32,000 bases of DNA from Nanobdellota archaeon (lineage in GTDB: Archaea; Nanobdellota; Nanobdellia; Nanobdellales; Nanobdellaceae). Position 1 is the stretch's first letter. The number at the start of each line of letters is the position of its first letter. The stretch covers positions 660,001 through 692,000 of the forward strand of contig AP031373.1 in NCBI GenBank assembly GCA_042850255.1. Reading direction: 5' to 3'. A program made the translations under genes and the position numbers. Positions 954 to 18,514 of the stretch are shown here, one piece after another. The notes beneath the pieces are model-generated. The model saw nothing but the letters and a program-made list of their open reading frames with translations. It had not been told where the DNA came from and ran no database searches.

Positions 954-1020
954 TCTATCTTTAATATATAATCTTTAGCAAATAATAACAAATACAAATA
1001 GGAAAACTATATATGTTGTT

Positions 1021-1752: not shown

Positions 1753-1857
1753 AATAAGACGATATGATAAAAATTTTTTAAGAGGACATCCTTCTCATAT
1801 TTATTCATAAATAAAAAATATATAATTTAGGGAAGTTCAATATTAATTTATAATAAT

Positions 1858-1877
1858 ACACTGAAAAATTTCAGTGT
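1858..1877. promoter_or_regulatory. Palindrome ACACTGAAA-AA-TTTCAGTGT in a divergent intergenic region
   Basis: Perfect 9-bp inverted arms with a 2-nt spacer. They are flanked by imperfectly complementary ATAATAAT / ATTATTAT. The site lies between the divergent genes 1021-1752(-) and 2049-2498(+). Confidence 0.3.
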
Positions 1878-2048
1878 TTATATTATTATATTAATATATA
1901 TGGGAAGAAAAAGAATTTTAATATAAATGACATATATTTCCGAAGGCATCTTGTATATTATCGATCGAATATTTTGTATCCATTTATAAATATGTTTAGC
2001 AAAATCTGGAGTGGTATATAAATCTTTTGGTGGGATAATATTTACGGA

Positions 2049-2498
2049 ATGGAGTACAATATAAATATATTTGGAGTATACACTAAAGTGATAATATTAG
2101 ACAATGAAGAGGAATTGAAGAAATTCAGAAGAATATGTCGGGACTGGGATAAATATATAGTAATATTGAATAAAGAAATTATCGTACCTTCCATGTTGTT
2201 AAATAGAAAAATACTATCTAAAATAAGAAATTTAGTAATTAAAAGAGAAACAAGTTCGAAGTATGAAAATGGTAAAAAGATAACAGTACATTTTTATAGA
2301 ATAAAATTAGAAGATCCCATTAAAAGCATAATAAAGCAAAATAAAAATATAATTGATTATAAGAGGTTTGTAGAAAATCTGGTAAGTCAAAAATATATGG
2401 AATATTATTATAGAAAGGAAAAGAAGCTAAATGACGAAATAAATAAATTAAAGAAAAGTATAGATGATCTATATAATATAATAAGACAAATAAAATAG
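2049..2498 (+). CDS. Hypothetical protein (149 aa)
   Basis: Uninterrupted ORF with genome-typical K/I/N/E composition. The C-terminal part is predicted helical or coiled-coil. No recognisable motif. Confidence 0.45.
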   Translation: MEYNINIFGVYTKVIILDNEEELKKFRRICRDWDKYIVILNKEIIVPSMLLNRKILSKIRNLVIKRETSSKYENGKKITVHFYRIKLEDPIKSIIKQNKNIIDYKRFVENLVSQKYMEYYYRKEKKLNDEINKLKKSIDDLYNIIRQIK

Positions 2499-2521
2499 GT
2501 GAAGAAATATTTATCGATAAA

Positions 2522-2797
2522 TTGATGAGTATAGCATTTAAGAAGAAAATATTATATTATATAAAATTAAGAAAATTAGGATATTCTATATATGAAATAA
2601 TAAGATTATTACCTATAGATAAAAAAGAAAAGGAGTTTTTAATAGAAGTAATAAGTTTAATAAAAATTATAGATGAAAAATTAATAAGAAATTATAATAA
2701 CTTAATTGAAGAATATGAAAATAAAATAAAAGAATATGAAGGAAGAATTAATAAAATAAAAAATAAGTATAGAGAATTAGAAAAGTTATATTTGTAA
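2522..2797 (+). CDS. Small hypothetical protein with a possible N-terminal HTH and C-terminal coiled coil
   Basis: 91 aa. The track start is TTG at 2522 and an ATG follows at 2525. The segment ILYYIKLRKLGYSIYEIIRLL resembles an HTH, followed by a heptad-like EEYENKIKEYEGRINKIKNKYRELEKL. The 3' end overlaps the convergent HEPN-like gene by 12 nt. Confidence 0.4.
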   Translation: MMSIAFKKKILYYIKLRKLGYSIYEIIRLLPIDKKEKEFLIEVISLIKIIDEKLIRNYNNLIEEYENKIKEYEGRINKIKNKYRELEKLYL

Positions 2798-4150
2798 AAT
2801 ATTATCATTTATTTCTCCCAAATCCACATTACTTAATAGTCTTCTTATTTCATTTTCATATTCTTTATCTTTATCTATTAATTTTAAGAATTTATTTTTA
2901 TCTAAAGGAACCTGCATAAAAATAAGTATAGATTCTCTTAGATATTCTAATAATCTTAATAACAATTTTGTTAATTTTCCTATTTCTTCTATAGATTTAT
3001 CGTTATCTGGTATTAAAGTTTCTCCGTGGGCATATGCATTTCTTATTCCATAAGCTTTTGATATATATTTCTTTATGCTGCTTCTTGTGAAATTTTTATT
3101 AGCTATCGATAAAACTTTTCTAATTCTTTTTCTAATTACTTTTTTCTTTTTTCCTTCTTCTTTTCCTAATGAATAAAGTGTTTCTAAACCAAATACTGCG
3201 CTAGTTATCCTATCTTCTATTAAATCATGTCTAAGTAAAGCATCATTATATTCTCCTATTGCTCTACCTATTGGATTAGAAAGGTCAGGATTTTTAAATA
3301 CATATATTGGTATCTTATCTTTTATTTTGTTATAAAATTCCATCAATCTTTTTCCATCTTCTTTGTTTATATGATAAATAGGTGTTTGTACATCTTCAGA
3401 ATAATAATTATCTAAAAATATACTAGGAGTAGAATGTGAAGATTTATCATCCAAAATTGTAAGTTTTCCTACTGTTAAATATACTGCACCTAATTTATAT
3501 AATCTAAGTGCTTGAAGAAATCTGAATAACTCTGTTTTAATTATTTCATCATCATAATTATCAACTGATAATGTAGATGATTCTATTTCTATTTCATATG
3601 ACGTAGAAGAGGATATTTGATTAATATATTTATGTGCTATACTAAGAATATCTGGAGATAAATATTTAGAGCATTCTTGATATAGATCTTCTATAATTTT
3701 TGGATTAAAGTTGGTTTTTCTTATAACTATATTTTCACTAATCTTTATTTCATTTTCATTAGAAGATACATTTTGTAATATAATGCTTGCTTTATATTTT
3801 ATATTTTTTCCTTCTAATCTTTTTATGAAATTATCTGATAATTCTTCTTTATCTACATATATGGATTCTGTAATAAAATCTTCTAATAATTTATCAAAGT
3901 CTATATATTTTATATATTCTTTATCTTTGTAGATATCATTTAATATCTTTACAAAACATTTAAATTTTTCAGAAGATTTGTACTTTCTTCTAACCTCTAT
4001 AGGAAATTTTTTAGAGGTTGCAGTCAAATCATCGTATATCTGTACCTTTTTTATATCCTTATTTTTTTCTTTCCATTCTTTTAATGATTGTTGGATGTCA
4101 TCTGCTATTGTATATAATATTGATCTTACAAGATTTATATTACGATCCAT
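2786..4150 (-). CDS. Large protein with a C-terminal HEPN-like domain (R-x4-H motif), putative RNase or abortive-infection-type effector
   Basis: 454 aa. The C-terminal helical region reads ...DRITSAVFGLETLYS...KAYGIRNAYAHGETL...LLRLLEYLRESI. R370 and H375 (codons 3043-3041 and 3028-3026) form RNAYAH, the HEPN Rx4-6H active-site signature. The N-terminal 300 aa are unassignable. Confidence 0.55.
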   Translation of the reverse strand: MDRNINLVRSILYTIADDIQQSLKEWKEKNKDIKKVQIYDDLTATSKKFPIEVRRKYKSSEKFKCFVKILNDIYKDKEYIKYIDFDKLLEDFITESIYVDKEELSDNFIKRLEGKNIKYKASIILQNVSSNENEIKISENIVIRKTNFNPKIIEDLYQECSKYLSPDILSIAHKYINQISSSTSYEIEIESSTLSVDNYDDEIIKTELFRFLQALRLYKLGAVYLTVGKLTILDDKSSHSTPSIFLDNYYSEDVQTPIYHINKEDGKRLMEFYNKIKDKIPIYVFKNPDLSNPIGRAIGEYNDALLRHDLIEDRITSAVFGLETLYSLGKEEGKKKKVIRKRIRKVLSIANKNFTRSSIKKYISKAYGIRNAYAHGETLIPDNDKSIEEIGKLTKLLLRLLEYLRESILIFMQVPLDKNKFLKLIDKDKEYENEIRRLLSNVDLGEINDNILQI

Positions 4151-4241
4151 AAAAATTATTTTAAAGAGTAACTTAAAAGTAATTTATTCTGAAGACTTAT
4201 ATAATGGACATAAAAGAAGAAATAATATTTACATATTTATT

Positions 4242-4727
4242 ATGGGAGAAAATTGGAAATAAAATAAAAGAAGGTATGAATTTGAAGAAGTAAAAGAATA
4301 TGAAAGAAAAATTAGAGAAGAATATAATAAAAAGAAATTTGAAGATATATTAAATGAATTAAAAAATATACTAGAAAAAGAAAATAAAATTGAGTACTTA
4401 AATATAATATTAAATTCTAATTGGACAAAAGGTACTGTAGAAGTTAGTAAAATAAAACCTGTAGAACCTATATTAGGGGATTTACCAAAAGAAGCTTTAC
4501 AAAGTAATTTATTATATACTGCAGAATTTGTAAAGAAAAATATAAATTACAAAAGTAGTAAATATATAATAAATTTAACTAAAATTTGTGAGATAATAGA
4601 AAATTATCCACCAATTCTTTTACCATATTATAAAGATTATAAATATACAATATTAGATGGAAATCATAGAGCAATAGCATTAACAATATGCGGATATAAT
4701 AAAATACCAGCTTATATAAAAATTTGA
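4242..4727 (+). pseudogene. ParB-like nuclease domain ORF interrupted by an in-frame TAA six codons after its only ATG
   Basis: ATG 4242 encodes MGENWK, then TAA at 4260-4262. The same frame stays open for 154 codons to TGA at 4725-4727. Its translation ends ...VEVSKIKPVEP...YPPILLPYYKDYKYTILDGNHRAIALTICGYNKIPAYIKI (ParBc signature). I read every codon from 4263 to 4727 and found no in-frame ATG, GTG or TTG. Confidence 0.5.
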
Positions 4728-4860
4728 AAATAGTAGATAACAAAAATAATAATATAAAATAATTCTTATTTGTATCATTTTTATCTTATATTAAATTATA
4801 ATTGTAAGAATAACAAATTATAGATTATAAATAAAAAATTAATAATAAAATATTTATTAT

Positions 4861-6492
4861 ATGATAACAGAATTGTCTGAAGATAATAATTTAGTAGGAA
4901 ATAAAGCATCAAATTTATATAAAGCTAAAAAATTAAATATAAATATTCCAAAATCAATTGTTATTACAACGGATACATTTGAAGAATATATTAAAAATAA
5001 AGATATAAATAAAATATTGGATCAATTAGAAAAATATTTAGAAGATTTTAAAAGACCTTTAATATTTAGAAGTTCTACAAATATAGAAGATACATCTGAA
5101 AAATCTTATGCAGGAGTATTTAAATCAGTATTAAATATATATACAAAAGAAGATATGAAAAATGCAATAGAAACAATTTATCAGGATTTTATAAATAAAA
5201 ATATAAATGGAAAAATTGCAATATTAGTTCAGGAACAATTTAGTAAAGGAAAATTTGGAGTAATGTTCGGATTTGATAATAAAATTGTATTAGAAGTTGC
5301 AATAAATGATCCTGAGGGAATAACAAAAGGAAATGCAAAAATAAAAGATTTATATATAATAGAAAAAGATAATTACTATATTTATAATAATAGAAATTGG
5401 AATATATTATTTGATATTGAAATAAATAAAATAAAGGAAATTGATAAAGAATTGAGGAAAATATATTATCCATATGATGCAGAATTTGTAATATATAAAG
5501 GAGAATTTTATTTATTACAAATAAGACCTTTAACTAGAAAACCAAAATTAAATATTGGAAAATCAAATTTATATGGCATTGGAGTATCTTATGGTAAAGC
5601 AATTGGAAGGGTAACATTTTCTGATGAAAATTATGGAAAAGATAAAATATTAGTAGAAGATGAAATACCATTTGATGAAATAGATAAAATAAAAAATTTT
5701 GGTGGAATAATAATTGAACTTGGAACTTTATTATCTCATATATCTATCCATGCAAGAGAATATAATATTCCTGCAATAATTGGAATACCATCAAAATTCT
5801 TTAAAGAAGGTGAATTAATTGAAATTAATGGAGAAACTGGAGAAATTAAATTTTTAGAAAGAGAAGGATTTGAATTACCAAAAATTGAAAAAGAAGTAGA
5901 AATAGTAGATCCGAGAAAATTACAATTAATGGTTATTGATAAATATTCTTTTTTGTTATATCCTAAAGATAAATATAAAATAGTATATTATAGAGATAAT
6001 AGAGGATTAAATATTTTACTAAAATTATCTGAAGATCCTTTAGTAGATGGAGGAGAAGATAATTGGCATACTTATAATAATATTTTAGAATTATCATTAT
6101 TAGATTCTGAAATAAAGGAAGATTTTGAAAAAGCATTAGAAGTAGTAGATAAAGGAGATATTAATAAAATGAAGGAATTGTATAAAATATTTGTAAATAA
6201 AGTAAAAGAATATTATAAATATGCAGAAATAAATAGGGATATATATTATGCAGAAAAAGTATATTCATATATTAGAATAATTGATACAATGACAGTTATA
6301 TATGGACAAAAATTAAGAAATAATAAAGAATATGTAGAATTTATAAAGGAAACTGAAAAAGATGATGTAAAAGAATTTAGAGATATTTATTATTTATTGG
6401 ATAAAATATATGAAGAAATAAAGGATAAATATAAAATAGATAGAAAAGATTATACTTCTAACTTATCTTTCTTTATTGATTTATTAAAATAA
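4861..6492 (+). CDS. PEP synthase / pyruvate-phosphate dikinase-like protein: N-terminal ATP-grasp nucleotide-binding domain, phosphohistidine swivel domain and a non-canonical helical C-terminus
   Basis: 543 aa. The N-terminus (LVGNKASNL...IFRSSTNIEDTSEKSYAGVF...LQIRPLT) matches the PPDK_N/PpsA ATP-grasp. The segment GGIIIELGTLLSHISIHAREYNIPAIIG is the PEP-utilizer mobile domain, with the catalytic His at codon 5737-5739. The last ~210 aa are K/E/Y-rich helical with no PEP/pyruvate TIM-barrel features. Confidence 0.8.
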   Translation: MITELSEDNNLVGNKASNLYKAKKLNINIPKSIVITTDTFEEYIKNKDINKILDQLEKYLEDFKRPLIFRSSTNIEDTSEKSYAGVFKSVLNIYTKEDMKNAIETIYQDFINKNINGKIAILVQEQFSKGKFGVMFGFDNKIVLEVAINDPEGITKGNAKIKDLYIIEKDNYYIYNNRNWNILFDIEINKIKEIDKELRKIYYPYDAEFVIYKGEFYLLQIRPLTRKPKLNIGKSNLYGIGVSYGKAIGRVTFSDENYGKDKILVEDEIPFDEIDKIKNFGGIIIELGTLLSHISIHAREYNIPAIIGIPSKFFKEGELIEINGETGEIKFLEREGFELPKIEKEVEIVDPRKLQLMVIDKYSFLLYPKDKYKIVYYRDNRGLNILLKLSEDPLVDGGEDNWHTYNNILELSLLDSEIKEDFEKALEVVDKGDINKMKELYKIFVNKVKEYYKYAEINRDIYYAEKVYSYIRIIDTMTVIYGQKLRNNKEYVEFIKETEKDDVKEFRDIYYLLDKIYEEIKDKYKIDRKDYTSNLSFFIDLLK

Positions 6493-6509
6493 TTTCTTAA
6501 TTATTAAAA

Positions 6510-7580
6510 ATGGATAAGAAAATATATCTAGATTTAGATGGAACTCTTTTATCAAAATATTTGGATATATTAAATATCTTTAAAAAATATCTTGGAGATG
6601 AAGGATATAAAAAATTTGTTGAATTAGTAGAATTTAATAGAAAGTTGGGAAAGAAAGAAATATCTTTTATAGATATATTAAAACAAATTATAAATAATGA
6701 AGAAATTATTAAGAAAATATATAAAGAAATGAATAAAAAAATATTAAATCAAAATTTGGTAAATATTATAAGAAAAATGAAAAATAGAGGCTGGAAAATT
6801 GTTATTGTAACAAAGAATGAAGAAGTAGATAAATTATTGGAAATGTATAATATAAAAGATATTGCAGATGAAATAGTTATAACAAGGAAACCTGCATTTA
6901 TTAATGCAGATATTTATATAGGAAATGAAGAATATGAAGATATGTTATCTGGAAAATTGATGAATGCATTTACTATTAAAATTTCAGAATTGTCAGATAT
7001 TTCCATTAATTTTGATGATAATATTGAAGATATATTTGTTAATAATGAAGTATATAATTTTCTTTCAAAATATTATAACAATAAATTAAATATTTTATTA
7101 GATTTATTTAATGAAATTGGAATAAATAAAGATTCAAAGATATTGGATTTAAATAAATATTATGTGAAATATTTAAGAGAAAAAGGATATAATGTTTATG
7201 AAGATATTAATGATGAAAAATTTGATTTAATATATATTAATTCTTTTGATAAAGATATTTCAGAATTATTGAATGAATTAAAAAATATATTAAATAAAAA
7301 TGGATGGTTAATAATAAATATAGATAAAGAATTAAAGAATGAAGAAAGGAAAATAATAGACAATCCTAATATATTTGTATATATTCATATAATGCCAAAA
7401 GAAAAATATATTATTTATAAATATGAAATATATGAGAAAAATACCTGTAAAAAATATTTGGGAATAGTAAGAAAAATTAATTATAATATAGAAGATTGGA
7501 AAAATATATTAAAAATATTTAAAAATGTTATAATTAAAGAAATTGACGATGAATATTGGATAATAGTACAAAATAATTAA
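6510..7580 (+). CDS. HAD-superfamily phosphatase-like domain fused to a degenerate class-I methyltransferase-like domain
   Basis: 356 aa. HAD motif I is YLDLDGTL (residues 6-13). The C-terminal half, ILDLNKYYVKYLREKGYNVYEDINDEKFDLIYINSF...LKNILNKNGWLIINI, follows the spacing of MTase motifs I, II and III. However, the glycine-rich SAM loop (GxGxG) is replaced by NKYY. Confidence 0.55.
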   Translation: MDKKIYLDLDGTLLSKYLDILNIFKKYLGDEGYKKFVELVEFNRKLGKKEISFIDILKQIINNEEIIKKIYKEMNKKILNQNLVNIIRKMKNRGWKIVIVTKNEEVDKLLEMYNIKDIADEIVITRKPAFINADIYIGNEEYEDMLSGKLMNAFTIKISELSDISINFDDNIEDIFVNNEVYNFLSKYYNNKLNILLDLFNEIGINKDSKILDLNKYYVKYLREKGYNVYEDINDEKFDLIYINSFDKDISELLNELKNILNKNGWLIINIDKELKNEERKIIDNPNIFVYIHIMPKEKYIIYKYEIYEKNTCKKYLGIVRKINYNIEDWKNILKIFKNVIIKEIDDEYWIIVQNN

Positions 7581-7596
7581 ATATAATTTTTTATAT

Positions 7597-9513
7597 TTAA
7601 AAATAAGATAAATAATCCCTAATTATCCCAAATTTTTCTTTAAGATAAATATCTAATTTATATCCAGATCCTTCCTCTATAAAATCATTAACATCAAATC
7701 CATATTTTTCTTTTATTTTCTTTCTTATAATATTCCACAATTTTTTCCTTTCATCCCAAACATCATATTTATCAGATAAATTCTTCCACTTTTCTAATAC
7801 TTTATATAATTTATATATTTCTTCCCCCTTATAATTTTCAATATTTGCTAATACTAATCTATAATCTCCATATTTCATTGCCAATTCTCTTAATTTTCTA
7901 ATTCCATATCCTAAGGATATTAATGTATTTGCAATTCCAAAATATCTAGCAGATAAATCTATTAAATCTAAAATTTTTATATAATCCTTTAATTCATTTA
8001 CTCCGCTTTTATATAACTTATATCCTTCATAAAAACTTTTTCTAGCTAATTTCATACTTTCTCTTAAATATTTGTCTAATTCTTCAGGATTATCTAATAA
8101 TTTTTTACCTTTTTCAACCCATTCTTTCAATCCTTTATGAATTAAGAATCCATATATCCATTCAACATAATTCCAATGAACATCACTATGACCTTCTATT
8201 GCATTTAATTTTTCCAATATATTTTTCTTTATATTATTATCAATATTATTACTAAAATATAAAATATTATTACCCATATATTCTTCAAATAAAACTATTT
8301 TTTCAGGATTTTTTATTACTTCAATTTCATTTACTTTTTCTAATGTATTTATATCTAAAGGAGTTAAATCTAATGTAAAATCTGATAAATAATCTAGTAA
8401 TTTTATAGTTTTCTTTCCAGGATAATATACTTTACCATTATCTGCATCAACAAATAAAGGAGTTCCGTCCTTTATTATTTCTAATAATCCTTTTACTCCA
8501 ACTACAGTGGGAATTCCAAATTCTCTAGCAACAATTGCAGAATGAGATGTAATATTTCCTATTTCATTTACAATTCCAATTGCCTTTAACATATCTGGCA
8601 TCCAATCATTATAAGTAGTTTTCGATACTAAAATTTCTCCAGGTTTTAAATTTTCCAATTCTTTTTTATCTTTAATTATTCTTGCTAATCCATATACTTT
8701 TCCAGTACCTGTTGGTATTCCTTCTAAATATCCCCAATCTTTTGGAACATTAAATTCAAATTCTTTCCTTTTCTTATAAGTTATTGGTCTAGCTTGGAAA
8801 ATATATATTTTATCTTTTACTCCAAATTCTACATCAACAGAAAATCCGAAATATTTTTCTATTTCAATTATATTTTTTGCAATATTAATTATCAATTCTT
8901 TATCTAAATTAAAATATTCTCTTTTAATTTTAATATCAAAATTATTTTTATCTATATAATAAATATTTGTATTACCTTTTCCAGATACAACATTTTCTGT
9001 CAACCCTTTACTTATTTCTATTACAACTTCATCCTTATTTTCAAATATATTCTTTGAAAATCCAACTCCTCCATAATCTGTATTAATAAATTCTTGAACA
9101 ACAATACCCATTTTTATTTCAACTTCTTCATCTAATAATTCTAAATATTTTTTAACCTTTTCAGAATTTACAGATTTATATATTTCTTTTATACTATTTA
9201 ATAATTCTTCAAAATTATTTATGGGAAATATTGATATAAATTGACCTGCAAAAGAATGATAAATTAAATCTTCAATTGTTGCAGAACTTCTAGCAATAAC
9301 AGGAAAATTTAATTTATTTAAATATTCATTTAATTCTTCAATAAAATTATATGGAAAATCATTATTTTTTATATAATAATCATATACTTCTGTTGTTATA
9401 ACAAAACCTTTTGGAACATTAAATTTATTTATTAATTTAGATAAAGATAATGCTTTACCTCCAACTAAATTTAAATCTGAAGATTTATCTAATGGTAAAA
9501 TAAATTTATTCAT
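7597..9513 (-). CDS. PEP synthase / pyruvate-phosphate dikinase-like protein: ATP-grasp, phosphohistidine swivel domain and a non-canonical ~270-aa C-terminal domain
   Basis: 638 aa. The N-terminus is LVGGKALSL...VIARSSATIEDLIYHSFAGQF...FQARPIT. The swivel domain is VNEIGNITSHSAIVAREFGIPTVVG, with the catalytic His at codon 8544-8542. The C-terminus (...HSDVHWNYVEWIYGFL... then helical) resembles the C-terminus of the 4861-6492 protein (...DNWHTYNNILELSL...). It does not resemble a PEP-binding barrel. Confidence 0.8.
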   Translation of the reverse strand: MNKFILPLDKSSDLNLVGGKALSLSKLINKFNVPKGFVITTEVYDYYIKNNDFPYNFIEELNEYLNKLNFPVIARSSATIEDLIYHSFAGQFISIFPINNFEELLNSIKEIYKSVNSEKVKKYLELLDEEVEIKMGIVVQEFINTDYGGVGFSKNIFENKDEVVIEISKGLTENVVSGKGNTNIYYIDKNNFDIKIKREYFNLDKELIINIAKNIIEIEKYFGFSVDVEFGVKDKIYIFQARPITYKKRKEFEFNVPKDWGYLEGIPTGTGKVYGLARIIKDKKELENLKPGEILVSKTTYNDWMPDMLKAIGIVNEIGNITSHSAIVAREFGIPTVVGVKGLLEIIKDGTPLFVDADNGKVYYPGKKTIKLLDYLSDFTLDLTPLDINTLEKVNEIEVIKNPEKIVLFEEYMGNNILYFSNNIDNNIKKNILEKLNAIEGHSDVHWNYVEWIYGFLIHKGLKEWVEKGKKLLDNPEELDKYLRESMKLARKSFYEGYKLYKSGVNELKDYIKILDLIDLSARYFGIANTLISLGYGIRKLRELAMKYGDYRLVLANIENYKGEEIYKLYKVLEKWKNLSDKYDVWDERKKLWNIIRKKIKEKYGFDVNDFIEEGSGYKLDIYLKEKFGIIRDYLSYF

Positions 9514-9666
9514 AATATATTATTTTTTATGAAATATTAAAAATAATTTAAAAAATTAGGATAATAATAAAAACAACCATAAAGGAATAATATAAACACT
9601 TTTTTCTTCTTTTAATTCATCTTTACTTATATCCCTCTTTTACATATTCATTAATAGCTACTATAG

Positions 9667-9774
9667 ATTTTGTATCTTAATACAAAATATTTAATTTATA
9701 AAATATTATTTTTTGTATTGGAATACAAAACTTCTATATTATATAGATAATATTTTTTGTATAGAGATACAAAA
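9667..9774. repeat. Array of three perfect palindromes TTTTGTAT-N4-ATACAAAA spaced 43-44 bp apart
   Basis: IR1 is 9667-9688 (ATTTTGTAT cTTA ATACAAAAT, 9-bp arms). IR2 is 9711-9730 (TTTTGTAT TGGA ATACAAAA). IR3 is 9755-9774 (TTTTGTAT AGAG ATACAAAA). Centres are at 9677.5, 9720.5 and 9764.5. An extra half-site GAATACAAAAC lies at 9825-9835. Confidence 0.6.
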
Positions 9775-9904
9775 TATTGATTATCTAAAATAAGCTCTAG
9801 ATGTTTATATAGAAAAATATATAAGAATACAAAACCTGGATATAAAATTTTGATAGATCTAGTAGATAATTTGTTATACTTAAGAAGTCAAAATTTATTA
9901 TAGT

Positions 9905-10045
9905 CATAGCCCCATCATAATCAGGGGCTCCTGCACTCGACTTCCGTAAATGGCCCCTTCACATGCATCTGGGGCCGTTGCTTCAATGCTTCACTGCGCC
10001 CTAAATGGCTCCCTCATCTTATCCAGAGCCGTTGCTACACTGAGC
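9905..10045 (-). ncRNA. Candidate structured non-coding RNA of unknown class (GC-rich island with three G:C-stem hairpins); strand assignment is tentative
   Basis: About 54% G+C by hand count, against about 25% in the flanks. The hairpins are 9908-9913/9924-9929, 9952-9957/9971-9976 and 10007-10011/10026-10030. Hairpins 2 and 3 sit in a 55-nt tandem repeat whose stem substitutions are compensatory. The minus strand is favoured because stem 3 gains a U:G pair there (C.A on plus). In addition, the loops become GA-rich and K-loop-like on that strand (CUGA-UUA-UGAUG). Confidence 0.45.
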
Positions 10046-10075
10046 ATATATATTTTTATATATTATCTTATATGT

Positions 10076-10089
10076 AAGCTTATAAGCTT
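10076..10089. promoter_or_regulatory. Perfect 14-bp palindrome AAGCTTATAAGCTT upstream of the MNT/HEPN operon
   Basis: The sequence is its own reverse complement. It lies 36-49 nt upstream of the ATG at 10125 and just upstream of the TATA-like ATTATAAAAA. Confidence 0.3.
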
Positions 10090-10124
10090 CTAATATTATA
10101 AAAACTAAAAATAAATAATATATT

Positions 10125-10472
10125 ATGTCAGAACAAACAAAGACAATTGATAAAGAAATATTAAATAAAATTAAACAAATTATTTTAGATACTGCTAATA
10201 CTTATAATATTAAAATTCACAAAATTATTTTATTTGGATCTAGAGCTAGAGGAGATTACAGAGAATATTCAGATTGGGATATATTAATTGTAACTGAAGA
10301 TAAATTAGATAAAGAATTAGAAGATAATTTTTATTTAGAGGTTGGAAGGAAATTGGTAAAACTTAATATAATTCCTGAAATTATTATATCTGCTAAAGAA
10401 GAATTTGAAAAATATAAGTATTTAAAAGGCTTTATATATTATTGGGCAGATAAGGAAGGAATAATATTATGA
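10125..10472 (+). CDS. mntA: Minimal nucleotidyltransferase (MNT) antitoxin of a HEPN/MNT module
   Basis: 115 aa. ILFGSRARGDYREYSDWDILIV is the G-S-x9-11-D-x-D polymerase-beta-type NTase motif. Its stop overlaps the start of the downstream HEPN gene by 4 nt (ATGA). Confidence 0.8.
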   Translation: MSEQTKTIDKEILNKIKQIILDTANTYNIKIHKIILFGSRARGDYREYSDWDILIVTEDKLDKELEDNFYLEVGRKLVKLNIIPEIIISAKEEFEKYKYLKGFIYYWADKEGIIL

Positions 10473-10843
10473 ACGAAGATCTAAAAGAATTATTAGAATC
10501 TGCTAATGAAGATTTAGAAGCAGCAAAAATATTGTTAGATAAAAATTTATTTAAATCATCTGCTTTTTATTGTCAGCAATGTGTAGAAAAATACTTAAAG
10601 GCATATCTATTATATAAAACGGGATCTTACCCATTTATCCATTCTATAAAAAATTTAATTGAGCTTTGTATAAATGTAGATAAAGAATTTAATTATTTAT
10701 ATGATATAAATGCCGATAAATTAGATAAATATTATACAGGTACAAGATATTTCCCATTTTTAAAAATTACAGAAGAAGATGCAAAAGAAGCAATAGATAT
10801 TGCAGAAAATGTAAGAGAATTTATTTTAAAGAAATTATCTTAA
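10469..10843 (+). CDS. hepT: HEPN domain protein (putative toxin partner of the MNT)
   Basis: 124 aa, all-helical. The segment A.EDLEAAKILLDKNLFKSSAFYCQQCVEKYLKAYLL...HSIKNLIELC...GTRYFP follows the classic HEPN (PF05168-type) pattern. It is translationally coupled to the MNT gene. Confidence 0.75.
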   Translation: MNEDLKELLESANEDLEAAKILLDKNLFKSSAFYCQQCVEKYLKAYLLYKTGSYPFIHSIKNLIELCINVDKEFNYLYDINADKLDKYYTGTRYFPFLKITEEDAKEAIDIAENVREFILKKLS

Positions 10844-11266
10844 TTTTTCTTCTATTATTTTAATTAATTTTTCCGATAAAGATTTAACAAATTCCAAATA
10901 ATTTTTTGCCTCTTCTTCAGATATTTCTAATCCATAATATTTACTCTTATGTCTTTTATCTCTTAAATTATCTAACTTTAATATTATATCTTCCGAAAAT
11001 CCTAATTTTCTTAAATATGATATATCTGCAATATGTGAATAACTTTTATAACCATCCAAAGATAATATGGCATCTATTAATTCTATAATAGATTCATATG
11101 CAAATTCTAATTTAAATTTGGGAATCTTTAATTCTTCTGCAACCTTTAATCTTTCTGTTGCAGTTTTTAATAAAGATTTTGCTAAATTTATATCTTTTAC
11201 ATAAGTTCTTTTTATATCTCCTTTTTCTATAAAATATTCAAAATCTGGTATCATATTTTTATCCAA
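10835..11266 (-). CDS. HEPN domain protein (second module)
   Basis: 143 aa, helical. It contains ...LAKSLLKTATERLKVAEEL... and LDNLRDKRHKSKYYG, an R/H-containing HEPN-type motif. It overlaps the upstream wHTH-MNT gene by 16 nt, and its 3' end overlaps the convergent HEPN gene by 9 nt. Confidence 0.65.
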   Translation of the reverse strand: MDKNMIPDFEYFIEKGDIKRTYVKDINLAKSLLKTATERLKVAEELKIPKFKLEFAYESIIELIDAILSLDGYKSYSHIADISYLRKLGFSEDIILKLDNLRDKRHKSKYYGLEISEEEAKNYLEFVKSLSEKLIKIIEEKLR

Positions 11267-11763
11267 CCATATAATTTTACCCCATTTAAAATATTTTCTA
11301 ATAATTCTTTAGGATAATTTTTTATATCTCCAGAAAATACTTGTATTTTCCTAGATAATTCTTTTTCAAATTTTTCTAAATTTATTTCAAAATTTTTATA
11401 TCCGATATATAAATCTATATCAGATTTTTCAGTATCTGTTCCATAAGAATAAGATCCAAACAATATTATAACATCTGGAGAATAATTATCAACTAAATAA
11501 TTAACTAAATCTTTTAAAGATAAAATATTATATAATCTCTTTAGTTCTATAAAATATTTATTTTCAAGATTTCCTCTAATTAAATTAATTTTTTCTTTTC
11601 TTTCTATTGTTATTAAATTTTCATTTTCCAATTCCTTTATTATTTTTATTATGTAAGTATGTGAGATACCAGATAATTTTGCTATTTCTCTTATACTTAA
11701 ACCCTTTGTAGGATATTTAAATATTGGTATCAAAACTTTCCACTTGGTATCAAAAATTTCCAT
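11251..11763 (-). CDS. Winged-HTH fused to a minimal nucleotidyltransferase (DNA-binding MNT antitoxin)
   Basis: 170 aa. The N-terminal segment LSIREIAKLSGISHTYIIKIIKELENENLI is an HTH. The C-terminal VIILFGSYSYGTDTEKSDIDLYIG is the GS...DxD NTase motif. Confidence 0.8.
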   Translation of the reverse strand: MEIFDTKWKVLIPIFKYPTKGLSIREIAKLSGISHTYIIKIIKELENENLITIERKEKINLIRGNLENKYFIELKRLYNILSLKDLVNYLVDNYSPDVIILFGSYSYGTDTEKSDIDLYIGYKNFEINLEKFEKELSRKIQVFSGDIKNYPKELLENILNGVKLYGWIKI

Positions 11764-11783
11764 ATGGTATCAATATATACCAA
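11725..11783. promoter_or_regulatory. Three TGGTATCAA repeats at exact 20-bp phase, plus an inverted half-site forming TGGTAT-N6-ATACCA at the start of the wHTH-MNT gene
   Basis: TGGTATCAA occurs at 11725-11733, 11745-11753 and 11765-11773. ATACCA at 11777-11782 makes a palindrome with the third copy. On the minus strand this palindrome sits between the TATA-like TTTATAA (about -27) and the ATG (11763-11761). Two copies lie within codons 4-13. Confidence 0.5.
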
Positions 11784-11873
11784 TGTTTATAAATATTCTG
11801 ATTCAAAAATTTATCCAAATTGTTCCATAATGGAATAATTTTTCAAAAATTTTTTAATTCATATATAATAAAT

Positions 11874-12872
11874 TTAATAATAATCCTGGATAAATTCCTT
11901 TATATCATCTTCAGATATATAATATTTATACTTCTCTATATTCTTTACATCAATTAATACAGAAGCAATAGGTTTTATTATATTTTCATAAAATTCATAA
12001 AATTTTTTACTAACCTTTAATAATACAGGTCTATCTTTATTTTTTATCTTTTTTTCCAAAACTCCTAGAAGTTCTAATATATCAAGATGTCTTTCTATAT
12101 AATATATACTCATATTTTTATTTTCATAATCTAAGATCTCAACAGCATTAATAGTAGATTTTCCATAATCTACTATATATTTCAATATATCCTTGATTAA
12201 ATCTATTTCAAAATATTCATATTTAGTTTTTTCTTTAATATAATTTTCATCTATTTCTTTATTATTTATTTTTTCACAATATTCTTTTGCTTTATCCATT
12301 TTAACATTATAAATATCTCTAACATGATATATAAGTCTAGAATCTTCCAATATTCTTAGTACTTTTATTATATAAGTTTCAGGTATTTTATATTTATTTA
12401 AATAATTTCTAATATCTTTTTCTCCAAAATCTATATTTTCATTCTTTTTTATATAATTTACTATTCTCAAGAAATCATATATTCTAGTATTTTTAATAGT
12501 TTCTTCTAAATCTAATTTTATTTTTGAAATATTTTTATATATGTTATATGCAAATCCTCGAAAATCTTCTCCAAATTTTGATAATCTATATCCATCTTTA
12601 TCTTCTATAATTAATTTAAGTTCTTTCAATGTATTTATATTTAATGAATATATATCCAAATCTAAAGATTTAATTTTCTTATATTTTTCATAGCTCAATT
12701 TACATTTATTTAATATATCTAAAACCCTTTTCATTATTTCTTCCTCATTTCTATAATATTCATCAGGTTTAAAAATTAAATATGTTAATAATAAATCCTT
12801 TTTTGTAAGTAACTTATAAATTATCTTAGATACATCAGAGCTATTTAATATTATCTTATCTAATCCATCCAT
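11874..12872 (-). CDS. Tandem winged-helix family protein, short class (paralog G)
   Basis: 332 aa. It shares with the 16290-17273 paralog the segments MDGLDKII.../...DLLLTYLIFKPDEYY, YRLSKFGEDFRGFAYNIY and KVSKKFYEFYENIIKPI...NIEKYKYY. There are about three wHTH-like units, each with the pattern L..L...GLI....Y.L(S/T).xG. Its start lies 1 nt after the stop of the upstream long paralog. Confidence 0.7.
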   Translation of the reverse strand: MDGLDKIILNSSDVSKIIYKLLTKKDLLLTYLIFKPDEYYRNEEEIMKRVLDILNKCKLSYEKYKKIKSLDLDIYSLNINTLKELKLIIEDKDGYRLSKFGEDFRGFAYNIYKNISKIKLDLEETIKNTRIYDFLRIVNYIKKNENIDFGEKDIRNYLNKYKIPETYIIKVLRILEDSRLIYHVRDIYNVKMDKAKEYCEKINNKEIDENYIKEKTKYEYFEIDLIKDILKYIVDYGKSTINAVEILDYENKNMSIYYIERHLDILELLGVLEKKIKNKDRPVLLKVSKKFYEFYENIIKPIASVLIDVKNIEKYKYYISEDDIKEFIQDYY

Positions 12873-12873
12873 T

Positions 12874-14127
12874 TTAAATATGATTACTATCCTTATAATA
12901 CCAATACCTATATTTTTCGTTTTTTACTAGACCTTTATTTTTTAATTTTCTTAATATATAATATAACACTGGATTATCATATCCTGTATGTTGTGATAAT
13001 TCTTCAATACTTAATTTTTTATATTCTTTTAGTACTTCTAAGACTCTATTTATTTTTTCCTCCTTATATCTTTTTGAATTAATATATAGATTAATAAGTT
13101 TTGATATTTCTTCTTTATTTAAACTATAATCTTTATAATTATACAATTTAAAAGGATTTTCCGATACTTCTTTAATTTCTTCTATAAGATTATATAATTC
13201 AAGTAATTTTTCAGTAGGTTTTATTATAAAATTCTTATCTTTACCTTCCAATATCTTTAAATGCACAAGTACTGATATTATATCCTTAATAGTTCTCTCA
13301 TTCTTTTCATACTTTTTAACCAAATCATAAATATTTGATATAGGTTCCTTACTTTTTACAATATCTCTTATAACTCTTTTAAGAACCTTAAGATTAAATC
13401 TTCCATAATCCGCCTTTTCTTTTATATATTCCCTTATTTCATAGTTGTCTTTCCTATAAATATTTTTATAAATTTTTATAGCTTCTTTACGATTAATTTT
13501 ATAATATTCATCTAAATTCTTTGGTTCTTCATATTTTATTAATCCATAATCTTTAAGTTCTTCTAAATCATATCTAATACCTTCTGCTTTAGCATTTATA
13601 TTTTTAGTTATACTTTTAATACTCGTATTCTCTTTATTTTTTACAATATATTCAATTATTTTTAACTTATTTGATACTTTATTACTTTTATTAACATTTA
13701 ATATATCTTGAGGATTAATTCCTAATTCTATAAATCTTTTTAATACATAAGATATAAAACCTTTTGTTAGTTCTCCAAAAGATGATAGTTTATAACAAAT
13801 TTTTCCATTATTGTATACTTCTTCAGTTACTCCTATTTCTGTTAATATCCCCCTTCCTTCTCTATTCTTTATATAAGATTCATAGGTTGAATCTTCTACA
13901 GGTATAATTTCTTCATAATTTTTTGGGTTTTTTATTATATCATCTAAAGATAAATTAAGTAATCTTGCTGTACTTTCCATTAAACTTTTTCCATTACAAT
14001 ATAACTCATCTTTTTCTAAAGATAAATGGGTAATTGTTCTATGTAAGTTATTAAATAATAATATAATACTTATAAGTCTTTCCTCCTTTGATTTTTTAAT
14101 AAACTCCTCTAATGTGGTATTAGTCAT
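12874..14127 (-). CDS. Tandem winged-helix family protein, long class (paralog F, about four wHTH units)
   Basis: 417 aa. The family motifs are TLEEFIKKSKEERL, YKLSSFGELTKGFISYVLKRFIELGINPQDIL, IIEYIVKNK and IIKPTEKLLELYNLIEEIKEVSENPFKLYNYKDY. The terminal wHTH is LSIEELSQHTGYDNPVLYYILRKLKNKGLVKNEKYRYWYY. Confidence 0.7.
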   Translation of the reverse strand: MTNTTLEEFIKKSKEERLISIILLFNNLHRTITHLSLEKDELYCNGKSLMESTARLLNLSLDDIIKNPKNYEEIIPVEDSTYESYIKNREGRGILTEIGVTEEVYNNGKICYKLSSFGELTKGFISYVLKRFIELGINPQDILNVNKSNKVSNKLKIIEYIVKNKENTSIKSITKNINAKAEGIRYDLEELKDYGLIKYEEPKNLDEYYKINRKEAIKIYKNIYRKDNYEIREYIKEKADYGRFNLKVLKRVIRDIVKSKEPISNIYDLVKKYEKNERTIKDIISVLVHLKILEGKDKNFIIKPTEKLLELYNLIEEIKEVSENPFKLYNYKDYSLNKEEISKLINLYINSKRYKEEKINRVLEVLKEYKKLSIEELSQHTGYDNPVLYYILRKLKNKGLVKNEKYRYWYYKDSNHI

Positions 14128-14160
14128 TATATAATAGTAAAAATAATTTTTAAAATACTA
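14128..14160 (-). promoter_or_regulatory. Conserved promoter/leader cassette TTTAAAAATTA-N5-6-ACTATTATATA-ATG (copy upstream of paralog F)
   Basis: The minus strand reads TAGTATTTTAAAAATTATTTTTACTATTATATA-ATG. Near-identical cassettes precede paralogs E and B. The A/T box is centred about 23 nt before the ATG, which is consistent with an archaeal TATA box and a leaderless transcript. Confidence 0.45.
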
Positions 14161-14232
14161 ATTCAGGTATTTGTTTTAAAATAATATAAAATTTTCTGGA
14201 GAATATAATATACTAAAATAAAATTTAAAATA

Positions 14233-15339
14233 CTATTTACTTTCCTTATTATATATTTCTATTAATTTTTTAATCTTTTCTTCTTTCAATTTATATCCTT
14301 TATAATTATATAATTTATAAGGATCCCTAGATACTTCTTCAATTTCTTTTATAACATTATATAATTCAAATAATTTTTTAGTTGGTTCTATTGATATAAT
14401 AGTTTTTATATTATAACTATTATTTTCTAATATTCCTAAAAAATTTAGTATTTTTATTATATCCATTGCAGCCTCATAATTTATTCCTAATTTTTTCATT
14501 AAATCTTCTGCATTAATTTCTTTTTTATTTTCATAAATATTTATTATATATCTTATAGATTTTTTTATATTTTTAGAATTAAATCTTTTATAGCCAGTTT
14601 CTTCTTCTATATATCTTCTAATTTTATCATTAATTTTTAAATTTTTTATTATTTGATCGTATTCCCTTGCTTTATCTATATTTATATAATATACAGATTC
14701 TTTATTATTATTATAACTTATTCCTTTACCTACTATTAATCCTCTATACATCATGTTTTTTAGATGATACCTTAATAAATTATCCTTTATATTTAATTTT
14801 TTATAAATTTCTGTTAAATTTATTTTTTTATTTGTTTTATATTCATTTACTATATATTCTATTATTCTTATCTTATCATTTGGATAATATCCTTCTCTAT
14901 TACCTTTATTTATGTAGAATATATATTTTGGAGATATTTCTAATTCCACAAATTTTTCTAAAATATATGATATAAATCCTTTAGTCAATTCTCCAAGATA
15001 TGATAATTTATAACCTGTTCTATTATTTTTATCTTTTGCTATTATAATTATTCCAAGTTCTAATAATTTATTATATAAATCTTGTCTATGTTCACTAGGT
15101 TTCAATGGCAAAAATTCTTTATATAAATCATAATTATTCTTTACATCTTCTTTATTTAATCTCATATTATTTAAAATATCTTTTATTATTTCTCCTTTAT
15201 TATAATAAATTTTTCCTTCTTTCAAAGATATATTGATAATAAATCTTCTAGTATTTGATAACAATAATATCAATGTATCTAGCCTTTTTTCTATAGTTTG
15301 ATTAATAAAATTATCTAATGAATTATCTTTATTTATCAT
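14233..15339 (-). CDS. Tandem winged-helix family protein, long class lacking the terminal wHTH (paralog E)
   Basis: The ORF track extends to 15378 (MVCYLKINCNYYI...). Alignment to the paralogs (SLDNFINQTIEKRL) and the conserved ACTATTATATA-ATG cassette support the Met at 15339, giving 368 aa. The family motifs are YKLSYLGELTKGFISYILEKFVELEISPKYIF and IEPTKKLFELYNVIKEIEEVSRDPYKLYNYKGY. Confidence 0.7.
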   Translation of the reverse strand: MINKDNSLDNFINQTIEKRLDTLILLLSNTRRFIINISLKEGKIYYNKGEIIKDILNNMRLNKEDVKNNYDLYKEFLPLKPSEHRQDLYNKLLELGIIIIAKDKNNRTGYKLSYLGELTKGFISYILEKFVELEISPKYIFYINKGNREGYYPNDKIRIIEYIVNEYKTNKKINLTEIYKKLNIKDNLLRYHLKNMMYRGLIVGKGISYNNNKESVYYINIDKAREYDQIIKNLKINDKIRRYIEEETGYKRFNSKNIKKSIRYIINIYENKKEINAEDLMKKLGINYEAAMDIIKILNFLGILENNSYNIKTIISIEPTKKLFELYNVIKEIEEVSRDPYKLYNYKGYKLKEEKIKKLIEIYNKESK

Positions 15340-15375
15340 TATATAATAGTTACAATTAATTTTTAAATAACATAC
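15340..15375 (-). promoter_or_regulatory. Conserved promoter/leader cassette (copy upstream of paralog E)
   Basis: The minus strand reads GTATGTTATTTAAAAATTAATTGTAACTATTATATA-ATG. It overlaps the last codons and stop (15356-15358) of the coiled-coil gene. Confidence 0.4.
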
Positions 15376-16309
15376 CAATTTTATTCTTTAAATCCATTAT
15401 ATTATAATTATTTAATAAATCATTTATATCAGAATAATTGATTTTTTCAATATTCATCTTAATATTTGCCAGTTTTTCAGAAATTTCAAATGAATTATTA
15501 TAATTATATAATTTTATTAAAAATTCAATAAAATATGTTTTATATTTTATTTTCTCTAATATTTGATCAATATAATTTATATCTGAAGATTCTATTTCTT
15601 TTATTAAACTATTTCCTATTATCTTTATTCTTTCATAAATTTTTATTATATTTTCAACATTATTAATATCCAATTTATTAAATTCATCCAATAATTTCTT
15701 TTCTAAATCTACTAAATAAATATAATCAATTTTATATGAGTCTTTCCCTATGTTGTCTATTTTTCTATCATAATAATATTTTGGTAATTTAGTAAATATT
15801 TCATTATAGATTTTCTTAAAATCTTTGTATGCATCTTTAAATTTATCATAAAATATCCTTAAATTATCTATACCATCTATAAGATATAAATAACTCCATA
15901 TTTCCTTATTATTTTCAATATAATTAATTAAATAGTCTAGTTGTTTATTTAATATATTAATTTTTTCATTTATTTTATTTAAATTATATTTTATATCAAC
16001 AATTTCTTTTGCTTTATTAATATCTCTTAAATGGTAATATATAATAGATATATCCTTTATTCTTTCGGATTTATCCATTATATCTTTTATTTTTTTAATT
16101 TTTTCCTTTTCTATATTTATCATTTTTATTTTTATAGAATTGTTTAGATAATAATTTAGGTATGAATTTATTTCTTTTAATTTATCATTTAAATAACTTA
16201 TAACAAATTCTTCATTTTCATTATTTTCTTTAAATTTTTTAGCATTATTAATAACATTTTCTAATATTTCATTAATTATACATAAATCATCACAATTCTT
16301 GAAATTCAT
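15356..16309 (-). CDS. Coiled-coil / all-helical protein embedded in the winged-helix paralog block (gene D)
   Basis: 317 aa, extremely N/I/K/E/Y-rich with long heptad-like runs (KINEKINILNKQLDYLINYIENNKE). It lacks the family motifs of its neighbours. Its start overlaps the upstream paralog by 20 nt. Confidence 0.55.
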   Translation of the reverse strand: MNFKNCDDLCIINEILENVINNAKKFKENNENEEFVISYLNDKLKEINSYLNYYLNNSIKIKMINIEKEKIKKIKDIMDKSERIKDISIIYYHLRDINKAKEIVDIKYNLNKINEKINILNKQLDYLINYIENNKEIWSYLYLIDGIDNLRIFYDKFKDAYKDFKKIYNEIFTKLPKYYYDRKIDNIGKDSYKIDYIYLVDLEKKLLDEFNKLDINNVENIIKIYERIKIIGNSLIKEIESSDINYIDQILEKIKYKTYFIEFLIKLYNYNNSFEISEKLANIKMNIEKINYSDINDLLNNYNIMDLKNKIGMLFKN

Positions 16310-17273
16310 TATATTTATTCTTTAATATATCAATCAGATTTTCTTTATATATCTCAGAATATTGAGAATATTTTTTCAAATTATTTATATCATTGGATAT
16401 ATCATTAATAGGTTCTATTACTTTTTCATGAAATTCTATTAACTTTCTAGTTGGTCTTATATAAACAGATTTTTCTTTATCTTCTCTATTAAGTACTTTA
16501 TACTTTCTTAATTCTTCTAATATACTTTCTATATATCTAATATTATAATCATTTAAATAATCAGCAATTTCTGAAGCATCTATTATAGTTTTTTGGCATT
16601 CTTTTAAATATTCTAATATTTCTTTAATTTTATCAGGATCTGACAATTTTTTAATTTCCCTATTTTTTATTTCATTATAAAATTTATCAATATTGTCAAT
16701 ATTAATGCTATATATTTTCCTAATATAAACTATAAAATTAAGATCTTCTAACAATTTCAAAGTCTTTATTATATAAGTTGAAGATATACCTTTCTTATCC
16801 AAATTTTCTTCCAATTTTCTTCTAGTAATATATTGATCTTTATCTTCTGCAATATAATCTATTAAATTTACGAAGTCTTCTATTCTAATATTTTTAAAAA
16901 TATTTTCAACATTCAATCCAATTATTATAGAATTGTAGAATATATAAGATATAAATCCCTGGAAATTTGCTCCTAATTCAGATAACTTATAACCATTTTT
17001 ATATTTTTCTACTAATTTCATATTTTCAAGATCTTCTATATACTTATCTTTTTCATAATATTTATCAGGATCTAAATATAAATATTTCAAAAGTAGATCA
17101 TTATTTGAAGCTAGGTTAGAAATTATATTTATTATATCAGTACGAATATCTTTTTTTGATAGCATTTGATCTAGAGTTCCCATTATATAATGGTAACAAT
17201 ATATTTTTTTAAATATGCTACGATCAAAGTAATTTTTATGAAAATTATTCATCATAACACCATTTATTATCAT
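16290..17273 (-). CDS. Tandem winged-helix family protein, short class (paralog C)
   Basis: 327 aa as tracked. The true start may be the ATG at 17255/17252 overlapping the stop of paralog B, or 17183 (MGTLDQML aligns with MDGLDKII of paralog G). The family motifs are DLLLKYLYLDPDKYY, YKLSELGANFQGFISYIFYN and IRPTRKLIEFHEKVIEPINDISNDINNLKKYSQY. Confidence 0.65.
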   Translation of the reverse strand: MIINGVMMNNFHKNYFDRSIFKKIYCYHYIMGTLDQMLSKKDIRTDIINIISNLASNNDLLLKYLYLDPDKYYEKDKYIEDLENMKLVEKYKNGYKLSELGANFQGFISYIFYNSIIIGLNVENIFKNIRIEDFVNLIDYIAEDKDQYITRRKLEENLDKKGISSTYIIKTLKLLEDLNFIVYIRKIYSINIDNIDKFYNEIKNREIKKLSDPDKIKEILEYLKECQKTIIDASEIADYLNDYNIRYIESILEELRKYKVLNREDKEKSVYIRPTRKLIEFHEKVIEPINDISNDINNLKKYSQYSEIYKENLIDILKNKYNEFQEL

Positions 17274-18486: not shown

Positions 18487-18514
18487 TATATAATAGTGGT
18501 ATTAATTTTTTTAA
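18487..18514 (-). promoter_or_regulatory. Conserved promoter/leader cassette (copy upstream of paralog B)
   Basis: The minus strand reads TTAAAAAAATTAATACCACTATTATATA-ATG. It fills the entire 28-nt gap after the TAG stop of paralog A. Confidence 0.4.

Follow-up and report, generated by a model that had tools for sequence, protein, structure and literature searches.

We analysed a 32-kb stretch of the genome of Nanobdellota archaeon YN1 (hereafter the window; contig AP031373.1, positions 660,001 to 692,000 of the forward strand), in which an original prediction, made from the letters alone, had singled out a G+C-rich island at positions 9905-10045 as a candidate structured RNA gene. We favour, with roughly even confidence, the reading that this island encodes on the minus strand a lineage-specific small RNA that would bind the protein L7Ae and would be related to the kink-loop (K-loop) modules of guide RNAs. 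The island carries three hairpins, each with the sequence signature of a K-loop, and it matches no known RNA family in Rfam and has no detectable homologue in the collections searched. An element of 55% G+C, internally paralogous and built around K-loops, under strong A+T pressure, would find its simplest explanation in a functional L7Ae-binding small RNA; its transcription, strand, L7Ae binding and function are what we infer from these features.

YN1, a hot-spring ectosymbiont of Sulfurisphaera ohwakuensis, has a genome of 23.4% G+C with 889 coding sequences, 3 rRNAs and 43 tRNAs, other RNA genes not being reported (PMC11420986). Its nearest cultured relative is Nanobdella aerobiophila. The island stands out in this setting, with a G+C content of 54.6% against 21.0% for the whole window, and is flanked by DNA of 16.4% G+C on the left (9514-9904) and 10.1% on the right (10046-10124). 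Windows of 141 nucleotides (nt) with at least 50% G+C make up 0.08% of the total and every one of them lies at the island, while a scan with 60-nt windows found a single other strong G+C island in the 32 kb, the tRNA-Cys gene at 24258-24332. The original prediction had described an island of about 54% G+C and 140 nt within a 610-nt intergenic gap, and had taken it for the structured-RNA signature of a thermophile. Measurement (0.546, in a gap of 611 nt) agrees with the description, and the sharp G+C borders, together with a tRNA being the only comparable island, agree with the interpretation. The gap separates two divergent genes, a 638-aa PEP-utilizer-domain gene (7597-9513, minus strand) and an MNT nucleotidyltransferase gene (10125-10472, plus strand) that is followed by a HEPN gene (BFI73773.1, locus tag YN1_7600). 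Because both neighbours are transcribed away from the gap, the island is the terminator of neither. On the minus strand, the first real gene after the island is the PEP-utilizer gene, which starts about 390 nt downstream. A scan for promoter and terminator consensus sequences was uninformative, since the flanks are 84-90% A+T and offer TATA-like A+T runs at plausible distances on either strand.

We designate the hairpins A, B and C in their minus-strand order. The three stems that the original prediction had numbered in the opposite order are all present as it had described them on the plus strand, namely AGCCCC (9908-9913) with GGGGCT (9924-9929), GGCCCC (9952-9957) with GGGGCC (9971-9976), and GGCTC (10007-10011) with GAGCC (10026-10030), and the last of them does gain a U-G pair on the minus strand. 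Hairpins A and B indeed lie in a tandem repeat, whose period had been given as 55 nt and whose start-to-start spacings measure 54 and 55 nt. The flanks shared by both copies read TAAATGGCYCC ... GRGCCGTTGCT on the plus strand (AGCAACGGC ... GCCAUUUA on the minus strand), and the first copy contains an internal 8-nt duplication (AAGCAUUG/AAGCAAC, minus strand). On the minus strand, hairpins A and B are separated by a linker of 30 nt and hairpins B and C by one of 22 nt (linker sequences AUUUAGGGCGCAGUGAAGCAUUGAAGCAAC and AUUUACGGAAGUCGAGUGCAGG).

When the three hairpins are aligned on the minus strand, 18 of 18 stem cells are paired, and the paralogues differ by two double-sided changes (G:C to A:U and C:G to U:A) and one change of C:G to U:G. 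The stems had been called covarying. Pairing is indeed kept through compensatory changes, but the comparison involves three internal paralogues, and because there are only three sequences, with 59 of 500 shuffles equalling their stem-pairing record, the covariation is statistically not strong. The advantage in fold energy over shuffled sequences is likewise modest (z = -2.8 for the plus strand and z = -1.9 for the minus strand), and in minimum-energy folds at 75-85 °C no local element remains except the three G:C stems. Hairpins C and A are enclosed by outer helices, the outermost arms around hairpin A being 9986-9990 and 10043-10047, and these helices suggest an RNA of about 145-165 nt.

A D' box, a short spacer and a C' box together form a K-loop that is bound by archaeal L7Ae, in C/D small ribonucleoproteins as in the K-loops of H/ACA RNAs. 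Such a K-loop requires tandem sheared G.A/A.G pairs beside the helix, a non-Watson-Crick 3b.3n pair and a loop that provides L1-L3, with U at position L3. Read on the minus strand, the three hairpins follow one design, in which a 6-bp helix is succeeded by a like-with-like mismatch, tandem G.A/A.G pairs and a loop of 4-7 nt (6 in A, 7 in B and 4 in C). The 5' side of the loop reads NNGA-U (UGGA, CAGA, CUGA) and the 3' side RUGANGG (AUGAGGG, GUGAAGG, AUGAUGG), giving the full D'/spacer/C' readings CUGA-UU-AUGAUGG, CAGA-UGCAU-GUGAAGG and UGGA-UAAG-AUGAGGG. At the sequence level, all three loops thus show the N-GA...R-U-GA-N pattern of an L7Ae K-loop. Among random G:C hairpins of equal composition, about 1.2% carry the N-GA...GA-N signature; here it is found in three out of three. 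The GA stem has 9 layers in every hairpin if the count starts at the first Watson-Crick pair and stops at the second G.A, or 10 with the C.A or G.A layer below it. These loop positions spell NUCAY...AUCN on the plus strand, a sequence that matches no known motif. The minus-strand loop readings proposed at the outset hold as written, with a D'-like NNGA and a C'-like RUGANGG in each loop, and the K-loop reading built on them turns out to be the most coherent feature of the island, its box variants matching those of Nanoarchaeum equitans C/D small RNAs (sRNAs). The three loops are most likely box D'/C'-type K-loops and, judging from their sequence, putative L7Ae docking sites. Furthermore, stem pairing and K-loop positions have been kept, in contrast to the lengths and remaining positions of the loops, which have diverged; this pattern suggests selection on RNA structure rather than drift.

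As for the strand, we predict that the functional one is the minus strand, and hold this to be quite probable, because the C:G to U:G change leaves a pair on the minus strand only and because the K-loop can be read on the minus strand only. The features of the candidate RNA are collected in Table 1.

Table 1. Features of the G+C-rich island and of the candidate small RNA (window coordinates; hairpin sequences given for the minus strand)
Feature	Position	Strand	Description
Candidate small RNA, whole extent	9883-10047	-	about 145-165 nt; ends predicted from the outermost helices and the G+C limits
Hairpin A (hairpin 3 of the original prediction)	10007-10030	-	GGCUCU/GGAGCC, 6 bp including U-G 10012/10025
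Hairpin A loop		-	G.G mismatch, tandem G.A/A.G, loop UAAGAU; D'-like UGGA, C'-like AUGAGGG
Hairpin B (hairpin 2 of the original prediction)	9952-9976	-	GGCCCC/GGGGCC, 6 bp
Hairpin B loop		-	A.A mismatch, tandem G.A/A.G, loop UGCAUGU; D'-like CAGA, C'-like GUGAAGG
Hairpin C (hairpin 1 of the original prediction)	9908-9929	-	AGCCCC/GGGGCU, 6 bp
Hairpin C loop		-	U.U mismatch, tandem G.A/A.G, loop UUAU; D' CUGA, 2-nt spacer, C' AUGAUGG
Long-range helix around hairpin C	9884-9889/9939-9944	-	GAAGUC/GACUUC; in minimum-energy folds at 37-75 °C
Seventh, G-U pair of the hairpin-C outer helix	9883/9945		possible on the minus strand only
Irregular lower helix around hairpin A	9986-10047	-	AUGCU/AGCAU, CA/UG, UG/CA and GC/GC with internal loops; in folds of both strands
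Two-copy tandem repeat	9944-10047		9944-9998 aligned with 9999-10047; 54-55 nt

No known RNA family accounts for the island. A scan of Rfam at gathering thresholds, the check suggested with the original prediction, gave no match for any of three nested regions, tRNA, 5S, signal recognition particle (SRP) RNA and RNase P RNA included. At permissive thresholds six weak matches appeared, the best scoring 16.9 bits against a threshold of 37. Three of the six belong to C/D-box families, all of them on the minus strand (E = 0.24, 0.47 and 2.7), and these are the only group among the six to form a class. An sR14-like alignment was obtained for unit B only, and it was weak, at 11.8 bits where the gathering score is 38. 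A tRNA, a transfer-messenger RNA or a split tRNA was rejected, as ARAGORN was negative at the island and the T-arm consensus is absent there; the tRNA-Cys lies elsewhere in the window. Canonical H/ACA and C/D readings were worked out by hand on both strands, and both were rejected. An 'inter-hairpin' C/D reading, with the C box in one loop and the D box in the next, was discarded as well, because the internal D' would be without its GA. These comparisons, together with Rfam and ARAGORN, agree with the earlier statement that the island has no terminal C/D boxes, no ACA boxes and no tRNA, 5S or SRP features. The further claim that it fits no RNA class holds in part: the island falls under neither guide-family definition, but each hairpin has the construction of an apical K-loop module from an archaeal guide RNA, as found in the C'/D' part of C/D sRNAs and the upper stem of H/ACA sRNAs.

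Several observations weigh against a minus-strand L7Ae-binding RNA. Some concern the strand: an AAU/GUU extension of the stems of hairpins A and B uses U.G pairs on the plus strand and C.A on the minus strand, the fold z-score is slightly better on the plus strand, and just past the island that strand has a T5 run at about 10053-10057, although DNA of 79% A+T often contains such runs by chance. Another concerns hairpin C, in which D' and C' are 2 nt apart, less than in every N. equitans sRNA (3-4 nt). The remainder come from the search for relatives. A strict pattern of the unit had no match in 185,579 species genomes (GTDB, one per species), and its two matches in metagenomes were chance ones, on G+C-rich bacterial contigs. 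We also used a relaxed K-loop-unit pattern, in which the flanks and the GA dinucleotides were fixed and the stems and loops left free, and which matches the window twice where none is expected. In the species genomes it gave 54 chance matches, none of them from Nanoarchaeota and none with complementary stems. In viral collections the relaxed pattern gave one chance match and hairpin-specific patterns gave chance matches only. Finally, a covariance model of the three hairpins (R1) recovers A, B and C at 52.7, 52.2 and 38.8 bits, and finds nothing else in the window nor in about 110 kb from five relatives, which included two N. aerobiophila regions and syntenic SerRS/tRNA-Cys neighbourhoods.

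Phage and plasmid collections contained no match to the island either. In the neighbourhoods of relatives that carry PEP-utilizer (L004-L007), MNT-HEPN (L008, L009, L073) or SerRS genes (L065-L067, L074), the G+C islands are tRNAs, with the exception of one chance patch in L073. This patch, an intergenic stretch of 52% G+C in N. aerobiophila (AP019769, locus L073, 4586-4671), was taken for a chance resemblance to the island: it aligns no better than the mean of shuffled sequences, whose score it equals, and it has no stable fold and no Rfam match. It shares TTGCTACA..CTGC.CCC..TAAA..GG with the island linker. Absence from relatives had been named beforehand as a result that would count against the prediction, and it was found in part, the genome, metagenome, viral and synteny searches having returned no orthologue; the whole genomes of relatives were covered by exact patterns only, which divergent orthologues could escape. 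The right part of the window (SerRS, CTP synthase and tRNA-Cys) is syntenic with relatives and the part holding the island is not. Left of SerRS (about 1-20000), relatives (L065, L067, L074) carry PheRS alpha, PheRS beta and RIO kinase instead. As far as can be told, the element appears to be specific to its lineage.

Among other explanations, the island could be a three-hairpin H/ACA-like pseudouridylation guide, acting with L7Ae, Nop10 and Cbf5, like the degenerate Pyrobaculum 'H/ACA-like' sRNAs that do without a proper lower stem and an ACA box. We regard this as unlikely. Archaeal H/ACA RNAs are recognized by a K-turn or K-loop on the upper stem with a GA stem of 8-11 layers, ideally 10, and by an ACA or ANA box 14-15 (up to 16) nt 3' of the pair that closes the pocket, and degenerate NCA boxes have been described in H/ACA-like motifs (PMC4652768). 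The GA stems of the island, with 9 or 10 layers, fall within the natural range and near the 10-layer rule, and the apical K-loops lie on the helix side that faces the would-be pocket, as they do in archaeal H/ACA RNAs. Several hairpins per RNA (one to three) are also typical of that class, and the total size comes near that of the single H/ACA sRNA of N. equitans, which is 159 nt long and has two hairpins with internal K-turns. Lower helices can be drawn around units A and C, and those of neighbouring units overlap. The minus strand, however, is devoid of any ACA and lacks an ANA at 14-15 nt; GAA and AGU occupy +15-17, with GCA at +18-20 in units A and B. Counting the AAC/AUU extension as stem would bring this GCA to +15-17, 14 nt past the closing pair of those units, but at the price of a GA stem of 12 layers. 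A pseudouridylation pocket has about 5-9 nt on each side, above a lower stem of 5-9 bp. The internal loops of the island would be far larger and asymmetric, with 7-12 nt on their 5' and 10-18 nt on their 3' side, and the linkers of 30 nt (A-B) and 22 nt (B-C) are too short for a box together with both strands of a pocket and of a lower stem on either side, so that there is no room for three canonical hairpins. Since the flanks of units A and B are near-identical, both would guide one and the same site. By eye the N. equitans H/ACA sequence is unlike the island, and an Rfam H/ACA match is absent.

The remaining alternatives place the function on the other strand, in the DNA, in a protein or nowhere. 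A recently acquired or decaying fragment (the end of a mobile element, a miniature inverted-repeat transposable element, foreign DNA or a decayed C/D sRNA cluster), or else a DNA site, would fit a region that is not syntenic with relatives, adjoins mobile-type toxin-antitoxin modules and has no homologue in any collection searched, and mobility in Nanoarchaeota, with rearrangement in N. equitans, has been proposed for C/D sRNA genes. In the island, however, paired and K-loop positions have been kept while other loop positions have diverged, there is no second copy or terminal repeat within the 32 kb, and the phage and plasmid collections gave no match; protein-binding palindromes, for their part, conserve arms and not loops. 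We consider this quite improbable. Still less probable is a structured 5' leader on the plus strand, or a separate repeat RNA, belonging to the MNT-HEPN operon, for example an antitoxin RNA of tandem repeats, similar to type III, that the HEPN RNase would process. The island has the same orientation as the MNT gene in this reading and ends 78 nt before its ATG (10125), the tandem repeat is followed by the T5 run, the z-score of the plus strand and the U.G pairs that lengthen stems 2 and 3 on that strand only point the same way, and HEPN proteins are RNases. On the other hand, a type III (ToxI-like) repeat RNA should accompany its toxin gene family consistently, lying upstream of it, and the MNT-HEPN homologues of L008, L067 and L073 (the last being the four tandem pairs of N. 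aerobiophila) have neither repeats nor an island, which argues against a toxin-antitoxin-linked RNA; T5 runs are, as said, common by chance, and the conserved loop positions NUCAY...AUCN are no known motif on the plus strand, against a textbook K-loop on the minus strand. A small protein, finally, is scarcely credible. An ORF for 47 aa (9950-10093, plus strand) does start with ATG and span hairpins B and A, but its codons have 54% G+C in surroundings of 21%, and the repeat period of 54-55 nt was given as a non-multiple of three. The exact protein sequence is absent among 15 billion proteins, and when 1.84 billion representatives were searched exhaustively with HMMER, only three weak matches came up, including long proteins matched across many separate stretches.

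The explanation that we favour, the L7Ae-binding small RNA, can be put as follows. The island would be an independently transcribed small non-coding RNA gene of YN1, read on the minus strand from about 10047 to 9883. Its RNA would consist of three tandem paralogous stem-loops, each a 6-bp G+C helix topped by a C'/D'-type K-loop whose short loop ends in R-U. The K-turn-binding protein L7Ae, in up to three copies, would bind there and hold the RNA in a heat-stable ribonucleoprotein (RNP). The RNA is probably not a canonical methylation or pseudouridylation guide, because the would-be guide positions pair with each other. The units most likely descend from guide-RNA modules whose guide positions were turned into helix, an origin suggested by the size of a C/D sRNA unit, by the box variants and by the proposed mobility of C/D sRNA genes. 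As for function, we would favour a lineage-specific L7Ae-based scaffold or a regulatory RNP.

A bolder version of this proposal, possible though doubtful, is that the island represents a new class of RNA, a head-to-tail array of three K-loop hairpins that binds L7Ae multivalently, guides no modification and is specific to a lineage of host-attached Nanobdellota. An RNA of this kind could buffer or titrate L7Ae, nucleate a novel RNP or control a downstream element. The symbionts of the DPANN and Nanobdellota have tiny genomes with almost no annotated RNA beyond rRNA and tRNA. If the reading is true, the K-loop/L7Ae module would have uses beyond those now known, and the RNA might show the recycling of guide-RNA modules; even as a degenerate guide of the H/ACA-like or C/D-like kind, the RNA would have no described precedent in the family. 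As YN1 grows in stable co-culture, the prediction is directly testable.

Other features were noted in the window and in related genomes. Between the PEP-utilizer gene and the island, the palindrome TTTTGTAT-N4-ATACAAAA occurs in three copies at a spacing of 43-44 bp (9668-9775), with an extra half-site at 9827-9834 and no further full copy in the window; the array looks like a set of transcription-factor operators. The 638-aa PEP-utilizer protein has a paralogue encoded at 4861-6492 on the plus strand, and both this gene and the one at 7597-9513 on the minus strand encode PPDK_N and mobile domains with no match to the C-terminal catalytic domain. A homologue 56% identical to the 638-aa copy is found in Pyrococcus kukulkanii, and no N. 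aerobiophila protein is among the matches listed. MNT-HEPN modules adjoin structured-RNA genes in three Nanobdellota genomes: in YN1 (10125-10843) the module lies beside the island, in N. aerobiophila (L073, 8348-11479) a tRNA-Leu is followed by four tandem MNT-HEPN pairs, and in a metagenome-assembled genome of the Nanopusillaceae (L067, 9995-11083) MNT-HEPN adjoins tRNA-Cys. This may reflect the insertion of mobile modules next to RNA genes. In a close relative (L008, 780-930), the palindrome TTGGCCAAAAATATAAAATTTTGGCCAA lies upstream of an MNT-HEPN paralogue; it is likely an operator and unrelated to the island. Further into the window, two minus-strand genes (12874-14127 and 17245-18486) encode proteins of 417 and 413 aa with a C-terminal winged-helix domain, which look paralogous. 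Both are followed by uncharacterized genes of 317-381 aa, and the whole may be a duplicated module.

Among the known systems closest to the island are the archaeal box C/D sRNAs, which guide methylation with L7Ae, Nop5 and fibrillarin. Its hairpins have the order of elements found in the C'/D' K-loop of these RNAs, a D'-like NNGA, a short spacer and a C'-like RUGANG, and the same U.U-type 3b.3n mismatch followed by tandem G.A/A.G pairs. The variants CUGA, CAGA, AUGAUG and GUGAAG are those used by C/D sRNAs of N. equitans, in which CUGA-UUA-AUGAUGA (sRNAs 2 and 9) and CAGA-UUA-GUGAAGA (sRNA5) are found (PMC3491384 supplement). The island unit, at 45-55 nt, is about the size of one nanoarchaeal C/D sRNA, and the weak sub-threshold Rfam matches to such RNAs fall on the minus strand of the island. 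In contrast to C/D sRNAs, in which a terminal box C (RUGAUGA) and box D (CUGA) can form a K-turn, the island is without a competent terminal C/D K-turn. Indeed, of the C-like elements 5' of the hairpins (GUGUAGC, GUGAAGC and GUGCAGG) the middle one alone keeps the GA, and the D-like partners of these terminal elements are GGGC, CGGA and AUGA. The spacers differ too: C/D sRNA guides, which run from C to D' and from C' to D, measure 12 ± 1 nt and are free for the target, whereas those of the island measure 8 + 9 nt in A, 16 + 9 nt in B and 5 + 4 nt in C, and its would-be guides pair together as a 6-bp G+C helix. The island, moreover, would be three units fused head to tail.

With H/ACA sRNAs the island shares an apical K-loop or K-turn whose G.A pairs stack on the upper stem; known members of that class bind L7Ae, and for the island this is a prediction. 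A third likeness lies with archaeal mRNA leaders, in which L7Ae-binding K-turns serve translational autoregulation (Daume et al. 2017, PMC5539422). Both would be L7Ae recognition elements outside guide RNAs, the difference being three tandem K-loops in the island against one K-turn in the leaders. Furthermore, hairpin C directly abuts the AUG (9907-9905) of a 36-codon hydrophobic ORF on the minus strand (9797-9907, MTIINFDFLS...). This ORF is absent from the protein collection and is probably a chance ORF. By analogy with the leaders, the arrangement of a putative K-loop touching a start codon nevertheless resembles translational control by L7Ae.

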